From: Octopus vulgaris | Lineage: Eukaryota | NCBI GenBank assembly: GCA_951406725.2 | Contig: OX597815.1 | Coordinates: 98,890,001 to 98,954,000 of the forward strand | Direction of reading: 5' to 3' | DNA: 64,000 nt | In this document: piece after piece, positions 11,162-62,699 of the stretch | Numbering within the stretch: the stretch's first letter is position 1 | Layout: every line of letters starts with the position of its first letter | Notes under the pieces: model-generated | Databases searched by the model: none | Seen by the model: only the letters and a program-made list of their open reading frames with translations | What the model was told of the DNA's origin: nothing | Translations under genes and position numbers: made by a program

Positions 11162-11952
11162 GTGCATATTTCTTTCTTTTATGTATATATTCTAATGCAT
11201 ATAGTTGCATATCTAGACATGCTCATATATATTTAAATGGTAAACATCTGGAAAGTTTTACAGATTTTCACAGTTCCAGAGATGGACTGGATCTGTATTA
11301 GCTTTCTCCTTTCTGCTTTTGAGAAGCCTAATTTCTCAAGATTGGTATTTGTATGTATGTATGTATGTATGTATGTATGTATGTATGTATGTATGTATGT
11401 GTGCATGCATGTATGTATGTATCACATGTAAAACATGAATATACCTATCGTAAAACGTAGCAGGACTTTGTACAAATTTTAAATCCGACATTGGCGATTT
11501 AAATCTCATAACAATATTCCTAGGCTCGTTTGTGATCAACTGCAACCGCGTGAGTGAATTACCATTATTATCAACCTTTTGTTCTCATGAGGAGGACTGA
11601 AAAGTCTTGAAACGTTAACAGACTGGTGGACTTGGAGATGATATTGTTACAAAGTGAACATAAAGGAGCAGTCAGGAAAAAATGAAAAGCCCTTAATAAA
11701 AAGATCAAAAACTTGAACGTAGATTTTTTTCCTCTGTAACATGCTGTGTTTGAAAGAATTACTGTACCCTGTTCACAGAGAGAGCGTGATTGACAGACAG
11801 ATAGATAGAGAGGGAGACAGAGAGAGAGCGTCAGACAAAGAGTTAGATGGACAAAAAGATAGAGAGCGAGAAGTAAAGAGAGAGAGAGAGAGTAATAGAG
11901 GTATATACATAAATTGACTGACAGATAGGGAAAATGAGGAAGTGAGAATGAA

Positions 11953-17499: not shown

Positions 17500-17681
17500 G
17501 TAGGTGAATGAATTATCCTAGCATCGAAAATTCGTTTAACCGATACCTGGGTAGCAAATTCACATCATAAAACACGGTTGAAGCGACCTGTCAAGGGTAG
17601 AAACTCCGGGTTCTTGTGTGGAAATTTGTTTTTTATATGAATGAATGAAAGAATGGAGTCGAACGAAGATTTTAACAAAAT

Positions 17682-17778
17682 TCCTTTACTCTCGACACAT
17701 GTTTCGAAGACGGCATACTTTTAATTCCGAAGGAATAAATGGTGCATTATGCCATCTTCTCATCAGGAAAGATAAGGA
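17682..17778 (-). ncRNA. Type I hammerhead ribozyme (inverted copy)
   Basis: Reverse complement of the 18713-18809 motif. TCATCAG at 17760-17766, GTTTC at 17701-17705, GAC at 17694-17696. Confidence 0.85.
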
Positions 17779-17954
17779 GCCTCTTTCAGCCACAAGACGA
17801 ACAAAACTTTTGAGGATTGCCTACATGGTGACCACAGTGATAATGAGTGTTTTTTTTAAATAATCGGTTATAAGCAATGACGTCAAAAATGGGTAGAAGG
17901 AGGGAGTAGTAAAAATAGGTAGGGTACAATATGTATGCTGTATGTATGTACTAT

Positions 17955-18190
17955 GTACAGGACTGAGTAAATTAGTTTGGCGTCTTAAAGACAACAATAT
18001 AACTTTCAAGTTGGATTGGTTTATATTGTCTGTATCCTTTCCTTTTGATAAGGGCAGAAAATTTTGTAACATTTGTAATTCTGAACTCTTCTATATCCTT
18101 TTCGCCAAGGTTCCCCTAGTAAACACACTCATAGAAAAATTGTACAAATGTAAGCATTGGCAAAAACACACTTACCATTCATATAAATAA
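17955..18190 (+). pseudogene. PLE GIY-YIG endonuclease C-terminal remnant
   Basis: T-x-LSK-x-x-W-x-LKDNNI...W-x-IL...CNIC...KCKH pattern; 5' part missing. Confidence 0.75.
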
Positions 18191-18324
18191 TATAAATAAC
18201 CACTTTAGTTTTAACAATTAGCTTCACGTCCACACCACTGCCATAGACAAATTCTTTCGTATGCCTTCGAATTTTCTTTCTGCTCCGTTATATGTTCCAT
18301 TGCTACTAAATATCTTTGACGTAT

Positions 18325-18358
<34 letters not shown>

Positions 18359-18712
18359 ATAACACGCACGATCAAACACAGAGACACAAATTTTACACCT
18401 TACTCCTAAGTATATTTGACGTTTGTCTCACACACACAATAACACATACACACACTCAGACACAAATGCAGTTATATACACACACTCATACACATACACA
18501 AATACTCGCACTCATTAACACAAGCACACACCCGCACATCCCCATACATACAGCATACATATTGTCCCCTACCTATTTTTACTACTCCCTCCGTCTACCC
18601 ATTTTTGACGTCATTGCTTATAACGGATTATTTAAAAAAAACACTCATTTTCACTGTGGTCACCATGTAGGCAATCATCAAAAGTTTTGTTCGTCTTGTG
18701 GCTGAAAGAGGC

Positions 18713-18809
18713 TCCTTATCTTTCCTGATGAGAAGATGGCATAATGCACCATTTATTCCTTCGGAATTAAAAGTATGCCGTCTTCGAAACATGTGTCGAG
18801 AGTAAAGGA
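18713..18809 (+). ncRNA. Type I hammerhead ribozyme
   Basis: Stem I TCCTT-AT-CTTTC / GAGAG-TA-AAGGA. Core CTGATGA at 18725-18731. Stem II GAAGATGGCATA / TATGCCGTCTTC. GAAAC-ATGT-GTC at 18786-18797, with predicted cleavage after C18797. Confidence 0.87.
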
Positions 18810-18849
18810 ATTCTGTTAAAATCTTCGTTCGACTCCATTCTTTCATTTA

Positions 18850-18909
<60 letters not shown>

Positions 18910-19004
18910 GATAGATAGATTGATAAATAGATATGTATGTATATATATATATTATATTATTCGTATTATTATTTAATTGAACGCCACGTATTCATTTCCA
19001 AGTT

Positions 19005-19049
<45 letters not shown>

Positions 19050-19075
19050 GTGTGTCTGTGCGTGTGTGTGTGTGT

Positions 19076-19094
<19 letters not shown>

Positions 19095-19113
<19 letters not shown>

Positions 19114-19290
19114 CACCTTAACCTTTGTAGCAGGGGCACGGCAGTGATCTTGAAACTCGTCACTAGGGAACTAAGACAGGTGGGAAACGGGTTTTTTTAT
19201 GATGAACCAGATCTCAGAAAGTACAGACGGACGAAATGACTATAAGCATTTTGCCAGTCCTGCTAACGTTTCTGTCGGCTCGCTTCCTTC
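19095..19290 (-). mobile_element. Degenerate SINE family D copy
   Basis: TAAGCATTTTGCCAGTCCTGCTAACGTTTCTGTCGGCTCGCTTCCTT is the reverse complement of the family D head seen at 57752. Confidence 0.55.
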
Positions 19291-19773
19291 ATTATATAGA
19301 ATATTAAAAGACGATAGGTAGAGGATGGTGTGTGAAGGATCCTGCGCATCGATGAGAAGAGTCTAAATAATCTCTGCTTAAGTAGGTTCATGTCGGAAAA
19401 TATAGACACTTTCAAAACGGCCTTCATCGGGCAGTGATATAGAGAACGAGGACTTATCTGTTCGGATTTAAAGTTTACAACACTATCTGAAAAATGCTAA
19501 TATACGAAAGTGTTCGACACTGATGTGGTATCCATGCGTTCTTTATCTGTGCGTTTATACACCAGTGTGTTTTTACGTGAAGGACGTAGGTCTAGCTCTC
19601 AGGCATAGCTATAGATGAATAGTCATGTTATTCTGTAAGGAAGCTATGTCTTGAGAATGTGTGGGTTAAATACAAGTGGGAGTGTTGATGAGAGAGTTTC
19701 TCTTCCTTAAGAGGAACATGAATAAGTTGAAGTGAAGCTCTCAAAACAATTATTAGCGTACCATATAAAAAGG

Positions 19774-19817
<44 letters not shown>

Positions 19818-20877
19818 GGAGAGATAAAGAGAGACAGACAGACAGAATGAGGGAGAGGTATATTCCTTCAGGAAGTTTATGAGAGGTACGCGAAAGTAAT
19901 GAAATTAGCGTAATAATTGAACCTACACTGACAATGTAAATGAAAGCTAGGGGTTAGTAGAGAGATAAGCCGAATATGTGCGAAGGACGCTCCAAATTCA
20001 TAAATTTGCAGCATCTTTTTTATTCATTATGATATGTTTATAAATGGATTTTTATTCTTTCTCACGCACTCTTTTACTTGATGCTGAAATATCGAACTGT
20101 TTCTTGTTTGTTGCATTCTGAAGTATTTCGCTTTCGTGCAAGTCTCGGGACCAATTAAATAAATCCTTATAGTTCATATTCTTGTTACACTGGTTAACAT
20201 CGCCATTCATATTAGAAGCAGCTATGGCAATATTAGTTGCGTGTCTGGTAGTATATTCAGGACATCTTTCTATATTTTTACTAATTTTTGTATGTTAGAT
20301 CATAAAAATTACATATGATTACAAAAAACATTAACAACCCACTCTTCTGGCAAAAGAAATATTGACGATAATTTGTTATTTTTTTCTTTTGATAACGTTC
20401 CTAAAATGCATGATATATATTTATATATTTTAACTTCCTGATTTATACAAGAGATTTAATAAGTATCTGAAGGGAAGTTACTCTCCTATGATCTTGGATA
20501 AATTTGTTGCTGGTTTACAGTATATCAAAGGAAAGATATTTGAGATTTCGTGATTATACTTATAATAATCCTACGAAACAACAGCAATTGTGAAATATAC
20601 ATGCATAAATAAATAAATAGATAAATGTGGAGTTGGAGGACAGATTCGTAGAAAATATTTTGGATCAATTTCATCTAGGTTCAAATTTTGTTCAGATTAC
20701 TATATATTTTAAATAGATTCAAACGACAATTAACATGACAGCAGGCCCACAAACCAAGAAAAGGTGTGCGATAAAGAATGGAAAAAGAATTAAATAGCCT
20801 ATGTAAATAAAATATGTCAGATTCGTAAAATAGATGTAGGTATTATACAACATCTCAAACATAATTTATAGATGCTC

Positions 20878-20916
<39 letters not shown>

Positions 20917-20940
20917 CATACATACATACATACATATATA

Positions 20941-20994
<54 letters not shown>

Positions 20995-21000
20995 TGCCTA

Positions 21001-22254
21001 CAGGGTGCAGTGAATAAATTGTCGTCTAAATTACGCAAAGATGAAAATAACACTGACATCTTATTTTAACATATGTACCAAAATTACAAAAAACTATCTT
21101 GAAATACTAAATAGTTTATTTAATAAAATCGCCATTGTCTTCAACCACGGCCGCCAGACGATTTCAGCTCTTCTGGACGGTCTCCTTGTTTACGTTGGGG
21201 AATGCTGCCATAATCCTTTCCTTCAGTTCATCTTTGGTGTTACAAGGAGTTTTGTCGGTCTCTCGCTCAACTGCGCCCCACACATAATAATCAAGTGAGT
21301 TGAAGTGTAGGGGGGGGGGGGTTAAGTGACCAGATGTTAAGGGTGATGTGGTCGCAGAAATTGTCAAACAGCAATGACTGTGTTCTCCTGCTTGTGGCAT
21401 GGTACAGAGTCCTTTTGCCAGATATAGAGTCTTCCAGCATCCACTCTCTTGACCCAGGACATCACTACCTCCCCCAGGAAATTGAGGTAGGCTTCCGAGT
21501 TGAGCTTGAGGCCGTGTGGGAAGATGAATCGAGGCATAATATCGCCATCACTAGTGATAACTCCAAGCACCATGATATTGACTGGATGTTTGATTTTTAT
21601 CACTCTCGGTACCTGTTTTGGGGACACGGCAAGCCAACGGTTCACCATCTGATCCTGGCAGAAATTTTTTTCGTCTCAGAAAAGAAACCAATGCCTGTTC
21701 GGTTGGAGGGGATGCTTGAGTTTGTTCAAAAGCTTCGTAGCGCGGTCTTCCTTCTTGTTTTTGAGAGCTTGGGATGAAACATTGACCATTTCTCATCTTG
21801 GATGGGGAATACCGAATGTCTTCATGCACTACCTGCCTGAAAGAAACTCAGATATTCCCATGTCCCTGGCGATGGACCTCATTTTGCTTGGTGGGATTAT
21901 TCTGAATCATGGCCTGGATCTCACCAACATTTTCAGTTCTTTTTTTATCAGAACTATCAGAGTGAGTTTTCCGAGCTGCTGTACTTTTGAAATCACCATT
22001 AGACTCATCCAACTCTTGACGAATCTACTACACTGTCCTCACTCTGAAATGTTCGAATTGGAGCTTCTGACACGAATGCCAAGCAGTACAGTATGTCGTT
22101 TCCAAATTTCTGGCAATTAGATTGCGGCATGGTGGTGTTTTTCTCACAGACGGTGCCCAACTACGATACTGTGTAGTCTACAAAATCCCAAACAAACTAT
22201 GTTTATGCATGAAGTTAAAAATATAAAATGGTGATATTTACCCATCACATCCCA
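21001..22254 (-). mobile_element. Full-length degenerate maT (DD37D)-like transposon
   Basis: Imperfect TIRs (CAGGGTGCAGTGAATAAATTG / ATATTTACCCATCACATCCCA) with TA flanks. Frameshifted transposase: KHPVNIMVLGVITSDG...IWQKDSVPCH...LDYYVWGAVE...EDNGDFIK* (stop at 21116). Confidence 0.85.
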
Positions 22255-22325
22255 TATATATACGTGTGTGTGTGTGTGTGCGCGCGCGCGTGCGTCTGTA
22301 TATAAATATACATTATGTGTGTGTA

Positions 22326-22358
<33 letters not shown>

Positions 22359-22361
<3 letters not shown>

Positions 22362-23319
22362 AGGTAAGACATAATTATTTAATTTTTATGCTCTGCTATG
22401 ACTTAATTCCGAAACGTGCGTCCGTAGGTAACTTAATATAGAATGATTTTCGCCATTTATTTCTCTTTTGCCTGCGTTGTTTGTTTTTTAAGTGCTTTGG
22501 TTTTACTGGGATCTCCCTTTTAAGTAGAAAGAAGAGCCAAAACATTTTGACTGCTATTTCTAAATTCGGTGTGTGGTGAGGCAAATCGTTGCTTAACCCT
22601 TAATTAATTAGTATTACTTAAACCTTCCTTGTATGGGTCTTTTACATGCCGAACTCTACTTGGTGAAATTAATGATTATTTCTAAATTAATTAATTGATT
22701 TTACCCTTTATTATTGATAATTGTATTTCTTCCCAGTAAAAAACTGTAGCATCTTATTTTGGCAACACGCTGGCAGAAGGGGAAGGTAACTTACTTCCAT
22801 TCACCCTTTGAATTTGGCTGTACTGGCAAGAATTACGCTCGCTCTGATACTATGAGTTGAGGTGATGTCTTCTAGTGCCTTCAAATTTAATACACAATTA
22901 TTAATAATTGAGACGCAATTATTTATAATTGAAGAGTCCTACGCTGAGGAGGAAAATAGTCAGGTAAGACATAATTATTTAATTTTTATGCTCTGCTACG
23001 ACTTAATTCCGAAACGTGCGTCCGTAGGTAACTTAATATAGAATGATTTTCGCCATTTATTTCTCTTTTGCCTGCGTTGTTTGTTTTTTAAGTGCTTTGG
23101 TTTTACTGGGATCTCCCTTTTAAGTAGAAAGAAGAGCCAAAACATTTTGACTGCTATTTCTAAATTCGGTGTGTGGTGAGGCAAATCGTTGCTTAACCCT
23201 TAATTAATTAGTATTACTTAAACCTTCCTTGTATGGGTCTTTTACATGCCGAACTCTACTTGGTGAAATTAATGATTATTTCTAAATTAATTAATTGATT
23301 TTACCCTTTATTATTGATA
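22359..23319 (+). mobile_element. Non-coding 600-bp-period partial tandem (1.6 units) carrying a hammerhead ribozyme; retrozyme/PLE pLTR-like
   Basis: 22359-22719 repeats at 22959-23319, with one mismatch seen by eye. Bounded by TA-rich microsatellite on both sides. HHR spans the unit junction. Confidence 0.85.
22938..23028 (+). ncRNA. Type I hammerhead ribozyme with long stem II
   Basis: Stem I CCTACG (22938-22943) / CGTAGG (23023-23028), 6 perfect bp. Core CTGAGGA at 22944-22950. Stem II GGAA...TTCC with inner AGTC/GACT and CATAA/TTATG. GAAAC-GTGC-GTC at 23011-23022. Confidence 0.87.
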
Positions 23320-23362
23320 TATGTATATATATATGCATGTATGTATGTATGTATATATATAA

Positions 23363-24835
23363 ATGGTTCTCTATCTACGTTTAGTTTCTTAGTTGCTACC
23401 TTTACCACCACCTTATCCCCAAACGTTTCCGCCTCCATTCCCAACCCACTTTCCACTCTGCTTCACCCATCCTACCCATACCCCGTACTACCTCCTATCG
23501 CCTTCTGCGTGCTATCATTCGTTCTAATCTCTCCAAAATGCACACCCTTGACCGCCTTCTCCCACCCGCTTATTCCATCTTTTTCTCCCCTCTTTCACCT
23601 TCCTTTGCAGATTCCACTCTACGCTACATAATCCATTTAAATTATCTTCTCCACAAGTTCCTCGTCTGCACTAAACAACATAAATTCCACTCACTCTATT
23701 TCATTTTGTCAAACCGGTGCCTCTACAGCAACTCCTCCCGACCTCTCTCCTTCCCGATACACTTTCCCCTCATCCTCACCCCAACCCTTCCGTTACTCCT
23801 CTCCCACGCACTTACTCTTCCTCTCTCTCTTCCCAGCCTCGACTACTCCAACACCTTTCCACTTCTAACTCATCTACCCCTCCCGACTTCAGTCTGTTCC
23901 TACCATTCCTTCTGACATTCCCCTCTCTCAGGAGGCGGGCTCTCTTCTCAGTAAGGGTTTGCGCTTCGTATCCCTCTCTCCATCCAGTAACGAATTTCAA
24001 ACCCGTGCTGATATTCATAGCTTTGTGCACCGCATCAGGCCATATGCACTATTCCACAGCACTCCATGTGCATCTAATGAAGAGGACTGCCTCACCGATC
24101 TGCGCCACCGATCATCCCACTGGGCGCCAGCTACTGGCTGGTTCCAAGCAAACGATCATTTTGCAAGCATCTGCCAACGTGTTGAGGACCGGTTTAACTT
24201 TCGCAGGCGTTCCCGACATTTTAACATCTCCCCAGCCGAACACTTGGCCCTTCAATATCTCCGACGCCGCAAAGACATCATCATAGAACCGGCTTACAAG
24301 AGTGGAGCTGTGGTGCTGTGACGCGCAGACCGCTAAAAGGCTGAAGCTCTAAGCCAACTTCTATTGCCTTCTGACCTCCAACGCCACGTCTAACTACCAA
24401 CAGAATGTGACCTCCAATATCGGCGACCTCATCTCTTCCTCCCGTCTCCCTCATACCGCTCCCCATCTCAATATCCACACCCCACGCACCCCTACCATTT
24501 AATTCCTTCCCAAAATCCACAAGCCCAATATCTCTGGTCGCCCCATCAACTCCCCCACGGAATTGATCTCAAATACCTCGAGCGTGTTCTTGTCACCCCT
24601 AGCGGCTTCTCTCCCTTCCTACATCCACGACACTAACCTTGCTCTCCATCTCTTCCTCCTGGCCCCTCTAAATTTCTCTTCACTCTTCATATCAAGAGTC
24701 TTTATATGGTGATCCCAAATAACGAAGGACTTCTTGCACTCAAGCACTCCCTAGACCTTCAACCCAACCCCAGCCTGACTCCTCCACACATCTTCGTCTG
24801 ACCGAACTGCTTCTCGTTCGGGGGATTTTACCAAC
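23363..24835 (+). pseudogene. Degenerate Penelope-like reverse transcriptase ORF fragment
   Basis: Broken frames give LRRRKDIIIEPAYKSGAVV (KPADKGGAVV motif), FLPKIHKPNISGRPI, LPSYIHDT and LFTLHIKSLYMVIPNNEGL, all PLE RT signatures. Confidence 0.85.
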
Positions 24836-24919
24836 AATTCTTTGAAATAAATTTTCACACGCTAGGCCACTGGAAGTGAACATTTCTATTAATTTCCATT
24901 TCCCTTTGATATGATTAAG

Positions 24920-24961
<42 letters not shown>

Positions 24962-24964
<3 letters not shown>

Positions 24965-26148
24965 GGATCGGACAAAATAATGGAAAAACCTAGCATCATA
25001 GCATCATAAGTTTGAAATATCTATAAAACCGTCAAAAACTAGTCTATTTTTTTTTTGGTTTATATTATTAGTGTTACTTCATGTTTTGCTAAAATTGCTG
25101 TTTCTTTTCAGATATCTTCAGAAAAAAGTAATTAAAAATTCTTCAAAATGACAGATTCATCGGACTTTCAAAGAGATCAAATTGTTTGTGCTCGTATGGC
25201 AGGCGCTAGCGTAACGAAAACACCCGAAATGTCTGATGTATCAAGAAGTACTGTGTCAAAAGTAACGACACCCTTTGAGAAAGAGGGAAAAACCTCCTCG
25301 TGGAAAAAAAACTCCGGCAGAAAGATATAGCTTTCAGATAGGGAGCGTCGGACTCTTACGCGAATTGTTAGAAATGGTCACAAAAGTACAGCTCCCAAGT
25401 TTAATGCAGACCTTAATGACCACCTCGAGAACCCAGTTTCCACAAAAACTGTTCGCCGGGAGCTGCACAAAGTCGGATTTTACGGTAGGGTTGCAATCAG
25501 AAAACTATTACTTTCAAAAACAAACGTTGCATAGCGTTTAGAGTGGAGGAGTAAAAAAACCTACAGAATTGGTACCTAGAACAGTGGAGGCCTGTTATTT
25601 TCTCGGATGAGTCATCTTTTACCTCATTTCCGACCACCGGCCAACTATACGTGTGGAGACAGCCAAAAGAAGCACTTGACCCAGACTGCCTTCTTCCAAC
25701 TGTTAAACATGGAGGAGGATCTGTGATGTTCTGAGGGCTATGTCTTGGAAATCCACCGACCCAATGGTTTCCCTTCATGGCAGAATTATTAACAGTCAAG
25801 ACTACTGAAGCATTTCATCAAATGGTTGCGGAACTTTTCCGGCGAGAAACGGTAATATTTCATGTTTGATAATGCACCAATTCAAACAGCTAAATATTAT
25901 TGAACATTTATAATGCATTTTAGAAAAACAAGTTAGAAGTCGATATCTTCCACCATAATCACTACAAGAACTGGAGAATAATTTAGCTGAAGAATAGACA
26001 AAAATTCCTTTGGAGACAATTCAAACTTTGTACGAGTCCATAGCTCATAGAATTTAAGTTGTAATTACTGCCAAAGGCTGTCCGACCCCATATTACAATA
26101 CATTTGTTTAAAATTTTAAGGTGTTTCCATTATTCTGTCCAACCCCTG
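24962..26148 (+). mobile_element. Degenerate Tc1-type transposon
   Basis: TIRs GGACAAAATAATGGAAAAACC / GGTGTTTCCATTATTCTGTCCAACCCCTG-TA. Transposase remnants MTDSSDFQRDQIVCARMAGASV, FSDESSF, TVKHGGGSVMF, DNAPI. Confidence 0.9.
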
Positions 26149-26269
26149 TACATATGTAAGTACGTATGTGTGTGTGTGCACGCGCGCACATATTCTGTTT
26201 TATTTCAAGATTTCTTGCCAATAATGGTAAAGCCGTTTTCTAACTTTCATCCAAGGCTGTTGTCCATGC

Positions 26270-26845
26270 CTTGATGATCGATCATACTATCATCACGGAG
26301 CTTTCAACTAACATATTCATGCATAGCCTTCTGCTCACATAGGCTCATCTTTTCATCTGATGAAAGGTTGCGGTAGAGGCGTGCGACTTCTTTGGGTATG
26401 TATTCTATGTTATCAAACAAAGAGTGTTGCTCGAAGAGCTGCCTTCCAAGTTGTATGGTGTTATCAGCCTCATGTATGCAAACTTGGTCAAGGGACGCAC
26501 TTCGGTACTTGGTGGTTAAAAGATGCTGCCGAAGGGATATGATGCGACATTCAAAGGAATTTTGGAGCGTTGTTAAGCCTCTGCTGCCTTGTTTACGTTT
26601 TGGGTAGAGGCGGTCTACGTCACTGTTTTTGTGGAAATTATGTGTGCTTGTTAGTATTTTTCGGATTTTCACATCAATGGCTCGGATCTCATCAAGCGTC
26701 CAATCAAGCAGCCCAAATGCTGGTATGAGTACTGGAACTTCAAACACATTGTCGGCCACTGTTTTATTGAATGCAGAGAGTTCTGAGGCTCAGATTTCCT
26801 TTATTCAGCAGGAATATTCTTTAGTGATACGTGTTTTGTTACAGA
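26270..26845 (-). mobile_element. R4/Dong-like non-LTR retrotransposon fragment (RT C-terminal region)
   Basis: VPVLIPAFGLLDWTLDEIRAIDVKIRKILTSTHNFHKNSDVDRLYPKRKQGSRGL is the post-RT motif typical of R4-clade elements. Confidence 0.8.
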
Positions 26846-27209
26846 TACCACATGTATGTATGTATGTATGTATGTATGTATGTATGTATGTATGTATGTG
26901 TGTATGTATGTATGCATACACGCAAACAGAAAGAAAGTAAAGGCTGAAGATTTTCAGACGATGGATATTTAAGTTTAAATATATAGATATTAATATATTA
27001 ATAGATAAATATTACACACAGTATATGCTGCTTGCTCTCCCATATTTAACCATTCCTGAACTTCTCTTCACCATGATCTCAATCAATCCAATGTTTATTT
27101 GCTTCCATTACCGACTGCATATTTCTGTGAACTACATCTTCCAGCATTATTATGGACCTCCGAGCCCCCAGAAACAACTGTTGGACTTAGCAGCTTACTT
27201 ATATATATA

Positions 27210-27668
27210 GGGAGAGTTTACGAAAAAAAAAAGACGAAGACAGGTGGTGTACAAAACAAACAGATGTATTAGTATAACGCTCAGGAATAGAAGTCTTTTA
27301 CGTTTCGAGCCTACGCTCTTCTACAGAAAGGGACATAGAAAAAAACAAGGACAGAAACATGTATGTAGTGGCTAACGGTCTATCATGACGACTAGTGCCG
27401 GACAGAAGGGTCAAACACAGGAAGGAAACTAGGGGAGATAACAAGGTAAAGATGACCCCCAACACAAAGGTGCATGTGTGTATAAGTGTGTATGTATGTG
27501 CGTGTGAAAGAGGGCTGGTCGTCTGGACGTGTGCGTGTATGTATGTGTAGGTGTGAAGATGTAGGGATGGGTGCGTGGGTGGTGTGTTGTGATGTGATGT
27601 GTAATGTTGTATGGTGTAGTGTGGTGTGGTGTGATGTTGTTGGGAGGTGGTGGAGGCGAGAGTGGGGA
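27210..27668 (-). mobile_element. Probable PLE pLTR-like repeat with a minimal hammerhead-like motif (27295-27330)
   Basis: Reverse complement CTTT-CTGTAGAA-GAGC-GTAG-GCTC-GAAAC-GTA-AAAG. Bounded by (TA)n. Confidence 0.55.
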
Positions 27669-27723
27669 ATATATATATATATATATATATATACAAATAT
27701 ATATATGTATATATATATATATA

Positions 27724-28389
27724 TAGCCTTAGTAAATAATAATTTTAAAATAAGTCAGAAACCATGGTCCGGGAATTAGATGGTAAATGTTTTTGTTTTT
27801 CATTCCCTTCGAGAATTTATCCCTAATCAGTGGTTTGGACTTTAACTGGTCTTTCTAGCGTAATGGATTCCTATGATGGAAGCCTCTTAATATGTTTTAA
27901 TGTACACTGTATTTTATATGAATAATATATAGTCTATTGACTAATTTTCTTGTACGCTAGGCCACTGGTATTAAACATTTGTATAATTTTTATTACCCTG
28001 ATATCATTTATTATGTTTAATGATTTCTGGTAGATTCGTTCAAAGTTTTTACCGGCATCCACTTGTTGCAGGCAAAAAAAGACTGCACTTGCGCAGTGGA
28101 TTAGAAAAAATTAAAATGTACGAGCAATGAGTTTGGCCTCGTTGTTTGTATATTTAATCTAAGGCGTCCCCGCTGGTGAAAACTTAGCCTTAGTAAATAA
28201 TAATTTTTATTTACTGAAATAAGTCATAAACCATGGTCCGGGAATTAGATGGTAAATGTTTTTGTTTTTCATTCCCTTCGAGAATTTATCCCTAATTAGT
28301 GGTTTGAACCTTAACTGGTCTTTCTAGCGTAATGGATTCCTATGATGGAAGCCTCTTAATGCGTTTTAATGTATACTGTATTTTATATA
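27724..28389 (+). mobile_element. Non-coding 469-bp-period partial tandem (about 1.4 units) with a decayed hammerhead; retrozyme/pLTR-like
   Basis: 27724-27918 repeats at 28185-28388. GAAAC-CATG-GTC-CGGG at 27758-27773; the second GTC is 469 nt downstream. Confidence 0.75.
28169..28242 (+). ncRNA. Mutated type I hammerhead ribozyme
   Basis: Stem I CCCG/CGGG. Core CTGGTGA (one change from CTGATGA). Stem II ACTTA/TAAGT plus TTAGTAAATA/TATTTACTGA. TAAAC (GAAAC in the upstream copy)-CATG-GTC. Confidence 0.65.
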
Positions 28390-38116: not shown

Positions 38117-38205
<89 letters not shown>

Positions 38206-39800
38206 GTCTTTGCACAGCTTCTAACGCTTAAGATGTACTACGGTGTCAGCTGTTCACTACCAGTGATCTAAGGTGGCACCTCTTACTTTGCGAGTGCTTT
38301 CCGGTGTATTCGAGCGGTTCCAAGCAGTGCTGTTTTCTGCAAGTTCCTGCAAGTGTCCACCCTTATTGCAGCCCCTATTTGTTCCATGTATTTCTCGAGA
38401 TTTTTACTCACCGTTGCCAGGGCTCCGACATTTACTGGTACCTTCTTCATCGACCACAACTGCTTTACCTTCCAAGCTAACCTGTCATACCTATCGAACG
38501 AATTTTCTTTCTCCCTTATCGCATAGCTTGTTTTCAGCTGGGTATGCTATATCTATGATCCAGCATAGTTTGCTTTCTTTCTCAATTAAGACTATCTCTG
38601 GCCTCCTGTTCTCTATCTGATTGTCTCACTGAAGCATAAAATCCCACAGGATCTTTGTATTATCATTTTCAATGAGGCCTTCGGGTTTGTGGTCGTACCA
38701 ATTTTTTGCTCTGTCCAGACCATATTTGTTGCAAAGTGTCTTGATATATTGTCGTGGCGTCTCTTATATTCCCTCTGGACTACTGGCGTACATTGACTGG
38801 TAATATGCCATACGGTTTCACCATTTTGTCCATAGATTCTGCACTTATCTCTTTCTGATGTGTTGTCTGATCTGTATTTTCTGTAGTTTATTCTTAGTGA
38901 TTACTCTTGGGCAGCACAGATTAGCCTCCGTTTCCGGTTTTAAATCAATTTTAGTCATCCACAGCCATCTTTTTTCTCTGTCTGTCTTATCTTCAACATC
39001 CCTATGAAATTGTACACTCATTCATTTCTTTACCTATCTATTTTTATTCGTTTCCAGTTGCTTTTACTTTGCTTTGTCTTTGCAATTTTTCATCCTACAC
39101 TGGCCTGACCTTCTTACTTCTAATAATAGAGGTTCATTGGCATTTTTTAGATACCATGCTATGTTGCTCTAATGAAGTGTTCGCATCCAATAAATACTGT
39201 TCCACTTCTTTTTCTTGGTACATATACACTGTCTGTGTCCTTTTTTGAGGTGGAGTGTCCCATATCTACTTAACAATTTCATTTGTCTTTCTGTCTAAGC
39301 TGTTTAGTTCGTCTACTGTCCATGCAAGTACCCCTATTCTATATCTAAGGAGTGAAACCGCCCCGGTAGCTTCAATTTTATTCCATCCGTTTAATTTTGA
39401 CTTAAGGATCAGTCTCAGTCTGCGCAAGTACTCCATCTTAAATTTTTCTGTATTTTCTTTCTCCAGCAATTTATCCATTTCCAAAATACCCAAGTACTTA
39501 TCGCTCGTCTCTTCTATCTCCCTCATAACATCCCCGAGGGTATCGATAGCCCGTCCATGCATTTGATTTTGCCTCCCTTGAAGACTAACACACCACACTT
39601 TCTCAGTCGGAACTCCATTCTGATATCAGCACTCAAAATATACACTGTATCAACGAGGGAACTGACTTGGGCTTCATCTTTACCATAATGTTTGAAGTTA
39701 TCCATGAATAACAGAAGGTTGATTTTTGTTGGCGGCTTTTGAATACATACCCAGCTTTTGCTTTCCTCAGAATCAGTGTCAGTGGTATCAAGCACAGTAA
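38206..39800 (-). mobile_element. 5'-truncated R4/Dong-like RLE LINE in (TAA)n
   Basis: LLFMDNFKHYG (RT), KYLGILE, RLILKSKLNGWNKI, KCRIYGQNGETVWHI (zinc knuckle) and an RPDIVLI-type RLE motif. The 3' end runs into (AAT)n. Confidence 0.85.
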
Positions 39801-52393: not shown

Positions 52394-52417
52394 GTTGTTG
52401 TTGTTGTTTTTGTTATT

Positions 52418-55400
52418 GCCTTTACACACTTTCTAACGCTACAGTGTCAGCTATTCACTACTAGTGAACTAAGGTAGCCCCTCTTATTTTTCGAGCACCT
52501 TCTGGAGTATTCAAGTGGTTCCAAGTAGTGCAGTTTTCTGCAAGTGCTCCACCCTTACTGCAGTCCCTATTTGTTTCATGTGCTTCTCAAGATTTTACTC
52601 ACTGTTCCCAGGGATTCGACAATTATGGGTACTACTACCACCTTTTTCCTCGAAAACAACTGCTTAAACTCCCAAGCTAACCTGTCATATCTATCGACTT
52701 TTCTTTCTTCTTTATTGCATACCTCGTTGTCAGCTGGGAATACTATACAGTTTGCTTTCTTTCTCAATTAAGACTATGTCTGGCTTCCTATTTTCTATCC
52801 CATGGTCTCACTGAATCATTTAATCACACAGGATCTTTGCGTTATCATTTTCTATGCTGATTTCGAGTTTGTGGTCATATCAATTTTTGGCTCTGCCAAG
52901 TTCATACTTGTTGCAAAATGTCCAATGGACAAGCCTTGCTATATTGTCGTGGCGTCTCTTGTATTCCTTCTAGGCTAGTGGTGTACATTGGTCGTATCAC
53001 CACAAACTGTAGTGAGTTTTGGCAAGTCTATGGCATTCTCAATTAATACTGTGTCTGGTTTCCTATTTTCTATCTTATGGTCACAATGAGTCGTAAAATC
53101 CCATACGATCTCCGCATTACCATATTCGATGATGCCTTCGGCTTTATGTTCGCACCAATCTTCTGCTCTCTCAAGTCCATACTTGATGCAAAGTATCCAA
53201 TGGACAAGCTTTGCTATGTTTTCATGACGTCTCATATTCTTTCTGTGCTAATGACTTTTAATATGCCATACCGTTTCACCATTTGGTCCACAAATTCTGC
53301 ACTTATCGCTTTCTGATGTGTTGTCTATTCTGTAATTGGTTCTTAATGCCTGCTCTTGGGTAACACAGCTTAGAGCCACCGTTTCCGGTTCAAAATCACT
53401 TTTAGTCATCCATAGCCATCTTTTGTTTCTGTCTGTCTTATCTTCAACATCCCTATGAAATTGTCCATGCATTCTTTTCTTTATCCATCTATTTTCGGGT
53501 TCATTCATTCTCAAGTGCTTGTACAGATCTTTGCAATCTTCCAAACTACACAAGTCTTCTTACTTCCAATACTAGCGATTCTTTGGCATTTTTGCATACC
53601 ATGCTATGTTGTTTTCTTCTGCTCTCATGCTATATTCGCATCAAATAAGTGCTCTTCCTCCTATTTTACATGGTATACACAGTCTGTCTGTGTCACTCTT
53701 TGGGTGGAATGTCCCATATCTAGTCAGCAACTTCCTTGTATTTCTGTCTCAGTTGTTTAGTTCGGCTACTATCCAAGCGATTACCCCTGCTCCATATCTA
53801 AGGAGTGAAACCGCCCAGGTGTAAGTTTCAATCTTATTTCGACTTAAGGATCAACCGTAGTCTGCGCAATTACTCCACCTTAAATTTTTCTGTCATTTCT
53901 TTCTCCATCAATTCATCCATTTCCAATATTCCCCAAGTACTTATAGTCCGTCTCTTCTACTTGCTTCATAACCTCCCCTGAAGGTATCGATAGCCCGTCC
54001 ATTCATTTGATTTTGCCTCTCTTCAAGACTAACAAACCACATTTTTTTTCAGTCCGAACTCCATTCTGATATCAGCACTTAAAGTATACACTGTATCAAC
54101 GAGGGAACTGACTTGGGATTCATCTTTATCATAAAGTTTGAGGTTATCCATGAACCACAAGTGTTTGGCATGTTGTTGGTGGCTCTTGAATGCATACCCA
54201 GCCTTTGCTTTTCTCAGAATCGGTGATAGTGATATCATGCGCAGTACAGAGATCAGTAGCGACAGGCATCATATTGTATGCCTTACGATAATCTAGGATA
54301 TGGCTAAGTTAGTTTTCCTCCTGCTGCATTTGTCTAAGTACAATTTTGTCTACCTGGAGTTGATCCTTGGTACCTCTGCACTTCTGCTCATGTAGTAGGG
54401 ACTCCAATTTGTTTTACCAGATGTTCGTATATAGACTCTATGACTATTCTAGTCAATAATTTCCACATAAGGGGAATATCGGCTTGTAATTGTCACCAGC
54501 ATTGCCTTTTTTGATGTTTTTCAAGTACAGCACTGTCCTCTTGATTGTTTACTACTCTGGTGTTATTTTTTGTAGAATCTCTTCTGACTTATTGTGAATA
54601 ACCTACTCTACTTGTATTCCTTCATTCTTTGGTCATATCCCACTGTCTTTGCAACGAGACGCTATTTAAGTTTCTCCATTACCACTTTCAGGCCCTTTCT
54701 TTCAATATCATACTTCCTGTTCAGTGCCCTGTATTTCTGTTCGCTTTTAAGTTTCCCCTTATTTTTTCGGTTTAACACAGAAATGTCTTTCGAGAGGTTA
54801 TCTAACCTCACCCGTATTCTTCGTTTCCACCGTAGATCTTTTCTTTCGCCACTCCCATTACATTTCATTTTCTTGACATCAATACCTCCATTTTCTGCTA
54901 CAATAATACTTGCTACCTTGATCAAAATTATTCTTTCTGTAATGTTTTCTGTTCTGATGTATTTCAGAATTGCATTCACATTTTTCATTTCTTGGTTCAA
55001 TTCCCACCGAACAACCTTTTTTAAGGTTGCAAATAATGTCGCTATCGTTCTCCTGTAGTCTTGCCTTTATTCTGTCGTACATTGCCTTTTGCCCATCTGC
55101 CATGTCACCATTAGTTTTATTGTCTTCTTTTAGACCAGCTATATATCTCTCATCAAGCAGTTTATTAGAGATCTCAATTATGTTTTCTGCTGTGAGTTTA
55201 CTTTTATCAGTGAGAACTGTATTTTCATCGTTTCCTCTGCTGCTGTTTCCCAATACCCGTCTTTTGACAGTTTGGATCTCTACATCAGTGAACCAATGTT
55301 TTTTCTTATTACTCTAGCTTGATCATATGATCTCTGTTCCGTGAGTTGAAACTATCCTCTTTCACTCCATTGATCATACATACATTGTCGGTATCCCTCA

Positions 55401-62445: not shown

Positions 62446-62699
62446 TATGTATATTTTAAACGTATTTTTGTTTTGTTTGTTTATTTTCCTTTAAATCTTA
62501 CCTACTGAAGAGTAGAAATTCAACCTTTGTGATTTTCTCTTTAAGGAAATCTTGGTCCTTTTGTCAGAAACAATTGTCAGGGAATACGAAATAAAAGGAT
62601 AATCCATTTTAGTATCCAATCTACTTGATTTCATTTATTTGATAAAAATTTTTTGAACTTTGATCAATTAAGTCTTATAATATGTGTTCATATATATAG

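Follow-up and report, generated by a model that had tools for sequence, protein, structure and literature searches.

We analysed a 64,000-nt stretch of the Octopus vulgaris genome (contig OX597815.1, positions 98,890,001 to 98,954,000 of the forward strand; hereafter, the window) and found type I hammerhead ribozyme motifs with a stem II about twice as long as the longest, and three to four times the median, among hammerheads of related Penelope-like elements (PLEs). The motifs are hammerhead A with an identical inverted twin (A′), hammerhead B, a decayed hammerhead C and a fourth candidate, D. The ribozyme, its carrier and its stem III are of known kinds, and the long arm is what is new. Our favoured interpretation, held with modest confidence and drawn from fold models, is that A to C are PLE terminal-repeat hammerheads that would cut only as pairs, the long stem II being a folding brace selected for pairing and not for sequence.

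Hammerhead motifs with a long stem II

The window has a GC content of 34% and is rich in microsatellites. Scanning with a descriptor that leaves the length of stem II free recovered three intact type I hammerheads (A, A′ and B), and the same descriptor had no match in 60 block-wise dinucleotide shuffles. The core pattern with a 40-65 nt spacer matched four times, against a chance mean of 0.01. Hammerhead A (18713..18810, plus strand) has its core at 18725-18731, a 54-nt stem II with a 12-bp base at 18732-18785, stem III at 18789-18796 and a predicted cut after 18797; A′ lies at 17681..17778 on the minus strand (core 17766). Hammerhead B (22938..23028, plus strand) has its core at 22944-22950, a 60-nt stem II at 22951-23010, stem III at 23014-23021 and a predicted cut after 23022. 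All three carry intact CTGANGA and GAAA cores, an 8-nt AC-NNNN-GT stem III and C at position 17 (C17).

Hammerhead C (28157..28250, plus strand) is a decayed copy with its core at 28173-28179, a 47-nt stem II at 28180-28226 and stem III at 28230-28237. The stem II lengths of A, B and C given in the initial annotation were confirmed by the scan and the core coordinates. Intact cores are present in A, A′ and B but not in C, which has two core mismatches in the window copy, reading CTGGTGA (G at 28176) and TAAAC (T at 28227); the GAAAC once ascribed to all of them is found in C only in the partial upstream copy (27758). Candidate D (62505..62578, plus strand), absent from the initial annotation, has intact cores, a 55-nt stem II region and a perfect ACAATTGT 8-nt palindrome, with four of six pairs in stem I. 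The conserved core (CUGANGA / GAAA / UH) is thus present in A, A′, B and D and in the majority of C relatives, and absent from the window copy of C. D sits in a short TA-flanked element (62456-62690), and the stretch around its second core resembles that of C (4 of 200 shuffles score as well).

Three helices with an open stem I can be drawn for A (5+5, 12 and 2 bp in stems I, II and III), B (6, 4 and 2 bp) and C (4-5+6, 5 and 2 bp). Stem II folds better than shuffled sequence in each (z of -4.8, -2.8 and -5.3, respectively). The arms are nevertheless built differently: A has 12 bp, an 11x6 internal loop and a 5-bp hairpin, B has 4 bp, a 3x3 loop and a broken stem, and C has 5 bp, a loop and 11 bp. 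The single shared architecture proposed earlier therefore survives as a shared length and not as a shared anatomy, and no common motif or shape was found in the apical parts of the three arms. Their sequences had been called unrelated, which agrees with our comparisons of A with B and of A with C (scores equalled by 371 and 245 of 1000 shuffles), whereas B with C is borderline (13 of 1000). The arms had also been called AT-rich; this is so for C (19% GC), weakly so for B (30%) and not so for A (39% in a window of 34%), though all three are richer in AT than the comparator stems (mean 49% GC).

For comparison, a Hydra endonuclease alignment was used to fetch 94 loci (80 of the 479 confirmed in metagenomes and 14 from genome bins), picked by likeness to a query from outside the window and not known to include this host. 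A motif was held by 64 of them, giving 82 motif rows with a stem II of 10-25 nt; the 45 distinct motifs have a median stem II of 15 nt and none above 25 nt. A relaxed look at the 30 missed loci gave 12 with intact-core motifs and arms of 12-30 nt. Longer rows there (38-127 nt) were dropped, as each had a core mismatch, lacked an evident stem I or could be read with a shorter arm; one locus (L023) has, by eye, an arm of about 26 nt with a decayed core. An 8-nt stem III occurs in two of the 45 distinct comparators, C17 in three and a stem II above 25 nt in none, while A to D combine all three features. Among window motifs whose cores are full-length and whose stem III is 8 nt, four of four are long-armed, compared with 0 of the 45. 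All 45, a palindrome-filtered set, pair at the first three stem III positions.

Published rows point the same way. The 26 Hydra-clade rows have a stem II of 10-24 nt and a stem III that is mostly an AC...GT near-palindrome (PMC8557442), the stem II of the Octopus bimaculoides element Hydra-1_oBim is 22 nt (PMC8557442), and the 56 rows of Figure S3 in PMC4209133, judged by eye, all stay within about 25 nt. A short palindromic helix III is the metazoan norm (PMC4209133). Stem III, which had been thought unusual, is thus of a type common in both the Hydra clade and metazoan hammerheads; what sets these motifs apart is the length of stem II, not their short palindromic stem III. Nor is the long arm genome-wide, since the window also holds two short-armed minimal hammerhead remnants with GAAACGT, at 11578-11622 (plus strand; core hit 11584, stem II 18 nt) and 27295-27330 (minus strand; core hit 27326, stem II 13 nt), both of which fit the minimal hammerhead (min-HHR) geometry of metazoan PLEs with one core mismatch each. 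The suggestion of a lineage-level class stands insofar as the long stem II recurs in several families; these remnants and the 22-nt arm of Hydra-1_oBim argue against its being lineage-wide.

One published descriptor allows a stem II of 3-7 bp with a loop 2 of 3-10 nt (PMC4209133) and another a 7-17 nt spacer (PMC8557442); with a maximum of a 7-bp stem and a 10-nt loop, or of a 17-nt spacer, they would miss A to D. The initial annotation had anticipated that standard descriptors could miss such arms, and the 40-65 nt spacer pattern had no match in the 94 comparator loci. The "long helix II" of PMC13725137 is 6 bp. Rfam RF00163 gave no hammerhead match in the window at its gathering score of 34 (B reached 21.7 bits). 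This silence is not due to the long arm, because five of five short-arm Hydra loci (L001, L012, L033, L045 and L050) likewise had no hammerhead match in Rfam 15 at E<=1; it is a library gap, the model being blind to Hydra-type hammerheads. A profile made from 45 Hydra hammerheads placed A and A′ at the top (18.1 bits, E 0.0053) and gave B at E 0.72, with C and D unlisted. No account of a long-stem-II class in PLEs was found in the literature searched, the Repbase and Dfam libraries lying outside that search.

Hydra-clade PLE hammerheads (Craig et al. 2021, PMC8557442, File S2) resemble A in being of type I, 3′ of a CxxC-E-N-CxH endonuclease and associated with (TA)n, and their stem III is likewise a near-palindromic AC...GT (e.g., acca-a-tggt in Hydra-1_oBim; PMC8557442). 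They differ from A to D in stem II (10-25 nt, or 30 at most in the relaxed look, vs 47-60 nt), in a stem III of mostly 9-10 nt rather than 8 nt, and in position 17, mostly A rather than C. The min-HHRs of metazoan PLEs (Cervera and de la Pena 2014, PMC4209133), located in pseudo-long terminal repeats (pseudo-LTRs), share with A to D a predicted dimeric action. They have no helix III (GAAANNUH) and a stem II of at most 7 bp with a 10-nt loop, whereas A to D have a 2-bp AC-NNNN-GT helix III and a 47-60 nt arm and so fall outside the min-HHR definition (no helix III, stem II of 3-7 bp, loop of 3-10 nt). Helix II of the Schistosoma min-HHR is 7-8 bp, longer than canonical (PMC4209133). Comparable lengths are tabulated in PMC8557442 for PLE-X1_sMoe, whose stem II region of 53 nt (9+35+9) is flagged there as a departure from the canonical structure, and for eight Naiad "HHR_half_core" cases with core halves 35-50 nt apart; these belong to other clades and hosts, and the entries for them in that source do not describe a class. 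By eye, the 3′ ends of Naiad_Ovul and Naiad_Obim bear no likeness to B or C.

The Hydra alignment also gave 13 candidates in viral contigs, none of which was confirmed. Another 24 viral loci found by the long-spacer pattern were set aside as chance, since none has a fully self-complementary stem III and the one that was translated lies inside an open reading frame (ORF). Hydra-type PLEs, most with hammerheads, were seen in contigs filed as bacterial genomes or bins (L081-L094), a filing that likely reflects host contamination.

The elements carrying the hammerheads

Element A is, on sequence grounds, the 5′-truncated end of a Hydra-clade PLE, because it retains a CxxC-E-N-CxH endonuclease remnant and because 11 of the 11 fetched Hydra-type ORFs match this remnant, and nothing else in the window, by tblastn. 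The locus reads, in order, an inverted terminal copy, the endonuclease end, a 3′ untranslated region (UTR), a terminal repeat with the hammerhead, and (TA)n. The terminal copy (17500..17948, minus strand) is 5′-truncated and consists of the arm at 17634-17948 and about 134 nt of extra 3′ tail; the 3′ pseudo-LTR (18543..18857, plus strand) ends at (TA)n. The inverted arms are 315 nt long and 98% complementary, an arrangement described for PLEs in PMC8557442. The hammerhead within the 3′ pseudo-LTR, the (TA)n target and the inverted 5′-truncated copy are all Hydra-clade traits, and the ends of A were compared by eye with the published Hydra consensus ends. Within the window, the element is reduced to its endonuclease end, and the part that would carry the other clade traits (an RT with RWK and DKT motifs, a CxCX5C linker and no CCHH) is truncated away. 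These features support the earlier assignment of the motifs to PLE-type type I hammerheads.

The remnant itself (P0001; 17948..18184, plus strand) is a stop-free GIY-YIG endonuclease C terminus of 79 amino acids. It has 669 relatives at E<=0.001, in which the aligned C, C, E, N and H columns are invariant, and CxxC-E-N-CxH is the Hydra-clade endonuclease signature (PMC8557442, section 11). A word-indexed protein search with it gave no match, and Pfam did not name it, with a weak GIY-YIG match (E 0.072) on only one of eight relatives.

Element B (22359..23316, plus strand) is a partial tandem of a 600-nt unit, present about 1.6 times, and is flanked by TA-rich tracts. It begins 8 nt inside stem II, and its first copy carries only the 3′ half of the hammerhead. 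A single difference in about 360 positions separates its tandem halves, and we therefore regard B as young. Pairing of the leading half-hammerhead, as a substrate, with the full one was considered and dropped, as it is not the predicted minimum-energy fold. Element C (27724..28384, plus strand) belongs to a multicopy family and likewise has TA-rich tracts on both sides; its 461-nt unit is present about 1.4 times in partial tandem, starting 5-7 nt inside stem II. The tandem starts of the two elements (22359 and 27724-27726) both lie 5-9 nt inside stem II, in its 5′ arm, and show TA microhomology to the flanking (TA)n.

As non-coding tandem repeats with a type I hammerhead, B and C share a defining trait of retrozymes, and both are probably non-autonomous, retrozyme-like PLE derivatives. 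Retrozymes themselves are derivatives of PLE terminal repeats (bioRxiv 10.64898/2026.07.22.740005). The non-LTR animal retrozymes (Cervera and de la Pena 2020, PMC7229834; Li et al. 2026, bioRxiv 10.64898/2026.07.22.740005) are likewise non-coding tandems with type I hammerheads, a short palindromic helix III, a 6-bp helix I and a proposed mobilisation by PLEs. They carry two full hammerheads (bioRxiv 10.64898/2026.07.22.740005), whereas B and C each have one full and one half motif and so lack the second full motif at these loci. The units of B and C exceed the 170-400 nt range of retrozymes and lie within the wider 51-972 nt range, and retrozyme stem II, usually 4-5 bp, is far shorter than that of either.

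A splice-donor-like motif was seen by eye within B stem II (22961-22969), and acceptor-like pyrimidine-CAG motifs in the B unit (about 22722-22737) and the C unit (about 28060-28070); introns occur in PLE terminal repeats.

To profile relatives of C, contigs were placed on 27726-28384 from four runs, with three organism labels between them, out of the 24 listed; the C-matching contigs numbered 3065, 1390, 947 and 246 per run. Position 28176 was covered in three of the four runs, where A accounted for 665.6 of 740.6 of the depth in X1 (9 contigs), 133.6 of 133.6 in X10 (12) and 91.2 of 91.2 in X11 (2); X11 was only guessed to be RNA and its cover was not taken as expression. G is the majority at 28227 in all four runs (29, 26, 4 and 1 contigs). 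Because the majority has A at 28176 and G at 28227, the core of the C family is intact and the window copy decayed. G is also the majority at 28181 in X1, X10 and X11, where it pairs with C28225. Further out, the pair 28191/28216 is T-G in the window, while the X10 majority is C with G in loose ends and the X1 majority is T with A in loose ends; at 28194/28213 the T-A pair of the window corresponds to C-G in the loose-end consensus of X10 and X17. Compensatory change in stem II was looked at in C only, and these pairs, a hint among the variant rows listed, are suggestive of compensation in its outer stem.

The summed contig depth at 27770-27813 and 27902-27945 is two to three orders above that of the core in all four runs, which suggests a larger group of relatives sharing these blocks, depth being no copy number. 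Loose ends at 27948 vary and look hairpin-like.

A proposed pairing model and alternative readings

The 2-bp stem III hairpins of the monomers are unstable alone (+2.4 to +2.9 kcal/mol, computed). For B, the active double hammerhead is the predicted dimer minimum, 9.0 kcal/mol below two monomers, and for A the active dimer is predicted at 6.8 kcal/mol below two monomers. Stem II stays intramolecular in every active dimer model. The palindromes highlighted in the initial annotation (ACATGT in A and ACGT in B) are present but off-centre; the active register uses the whole stem III 8-mer, with two G-U pairs in both A and B. Hammerheads with a short helix III are reported to cleave as dimers, and PLE forms to lack tertiary contacts (PMC4209133, PMC6155905).

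Given the intact cores of A, B and most C relatives, the brace reading would run as follows. In the computed dimer, stem III would form 8 bp between the two copies and stem I would exchange strands between them, each copy keeping its own stem II. Because PLE hammerheads usually have no loop-loop contacts, stem II would be free in length, and without contact between loops 1 and 2 it could grow by hairpin extension; a long, stable arm may then keep CUGANGA beside GAAA until a partner comes. Cleavage would process tandem transcripts, possibly helped by the element's protein, as in the Poseidon PLE (PAc), whose hammerhead cleaves only with protein (PMC11167929). Since the 8-nt stem III, C17 and long stem II co-occur, A to D may be one diverged subgroup and not separate inventions. 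Each of the arms of A, B and C folds although their sequences have little or no relation and their shapes differ, which is what a brace selected for pairing would leave behind.

Several results weigh against this reading. For A, an off-register dimer through the ACAUGU palindrome is predicted 2.2 kcal/mol below the active form, and for the window copy of C the active dimer lies 3.0 kcal/mol above two monomers. D stem II folds no better than shuffles (z of -0.35). Flank comparisons among A to D are at chance level or borderline, and no coding similarity to a Hydra-type ORF or any PLE clade was found for B, C or D, which weakens the case for a common descent of the four. In one published test, one of nine predicted retrozyme dimers cleaved in vitro (bioRxiv 10.64898/2026.07.22.740005). 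The two sides of the covarying pairs in C were joined from different contigs or from loose-end consensus with 0.53-0.71 agreement. If those pairs are real, pairing so far out in the arm would exceed what catalysis needs, leaving room for a binding role.

Such a role is the basis of one alternative, that the outer stem II is a recognition element bound by the reverse transcriptase (RT)-endonuclease protein, which would set the cDNA stop or the transcript start. We consider this possible though unlikely. Both partial tandems (n = 2) begin 5-9 nt after CUGANGA, in the 5′ arm of stem II, and rough post hoc odds of hitting a 10-nt target twice in units of 600 and 461 nt are about 4 in 10,000; the compensation hints fall in the outer 11-bp stem of C, and the dependence of PAc cleavage on protein would fit as well. 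Two tandem starts are, however, a small number, the loose-end rows listed show neither clustering of contig ends nor a (TA)n loose end in stem II, and a shared binding site is hard to reconcile with apical parts that have no common motif. In PAc, a member of a different clade and the one PLE tested in vitro in this respect, RT begins at a hairpin located 111-118 nt inside the ORF, and insertion still occurs with templates trimmed to +20, a point that by our reading of the coordinates lies beyond the start of stem II (PMC11167929).

A second alternative is that the long arms are neutral by-products, for instance of inverted duplications in reverse transcription, tolerated by each family separately, with only the basal 4-6 bp mattering and no selection further out. 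The three anatomies, the GC range of 19 to 39%, the lack of homology of A to B or C, the loop-broken arm of B, the decayed arm of D and the 53-nt case in an unrelated plant PLE (PMC8557442) are all in keeping with it. We think it quite improbable nonetheless, given that the window motifs with an 8-nt stem III and full cores are long-armed without exception and the 45 comparators never are, and given the compensation hints 10-14 bp out in C. Least credible, in our view, is that the motifs are relics or chance folds with no copy still cleaving, to which we give very little weight. The two core changes in the window copy of C, the silence of Rfam at gathering score and the poor cleavage of published PLE hammerheads in vitro (PMC4209133) could be read in this way, but the descriptor's lack of matches in 60 shuffles, the intact cores in both copies of A and in B, the youth of B and the retention of the core by most C relatives are difficult to square with it.

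Neighbouring features and implications

A broken PLE reverse-transcriptase remnant (23360..24840, plus strand) was recognised by eye from translations and, by its motifs, is presumably Neptune-like; it had no Pfam match and no match in the word-indexed protein search. Directly adjoining it is a short piece homologous to the C unit at about 27943-28008 (24850..24916, plus strand; score 59 vs a maximum of 26 in 100 shuffles), which ends at (TA)n; it could have inserted independently or represent the 3′ UTR of the RT-remnant element. At about 2370-2480 on the minus strand lies what may be a decayed hammerhead, with a 33-nt arm, a self-complementary stem III of 8 nt and two core mismatches. Remnants at 21000-22200, 24960-26150, 26200-26830, 38200-39800 and 52400-54300 resemble, by eye, what we take to be two Tc1/mariner transposons and several non-LTR RT pieces.

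Censuses of PLE hammerheads rest on descriptors that end near a 24-nt stem II. Four long-arm motifs in a 64-kb window, together with the multicopy C family in runs of three organisms, suggest a sizeable uncounted pool. The role of the hammerhead in PLEs could be tested cleanly here, because deleting the long arm or replacing it would leave the core untouched, and B is both young and intact. Should the arm be no more than a brace, search methods would need correcting; should it fix 5′ ends or bind the protein of the element, the ribozyme would be tied to the insertion mechanism. More speculatively, and rather doubtfully, the host lineage may hold an overlooked large subgroup of Hydra-type PLEs and derivatives whose 45-60 nt arms escape the published descriptors considered here, are bound by protein and fix the 5′ insertion boundary. 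Were this true, thousands of ribozymes would have gone uncounted, the Naiad half-core cases with 35-50 nt between core halves might be real hammerheads, and the arm would offer a direct handle on the role of the hammerhead in PLEs.

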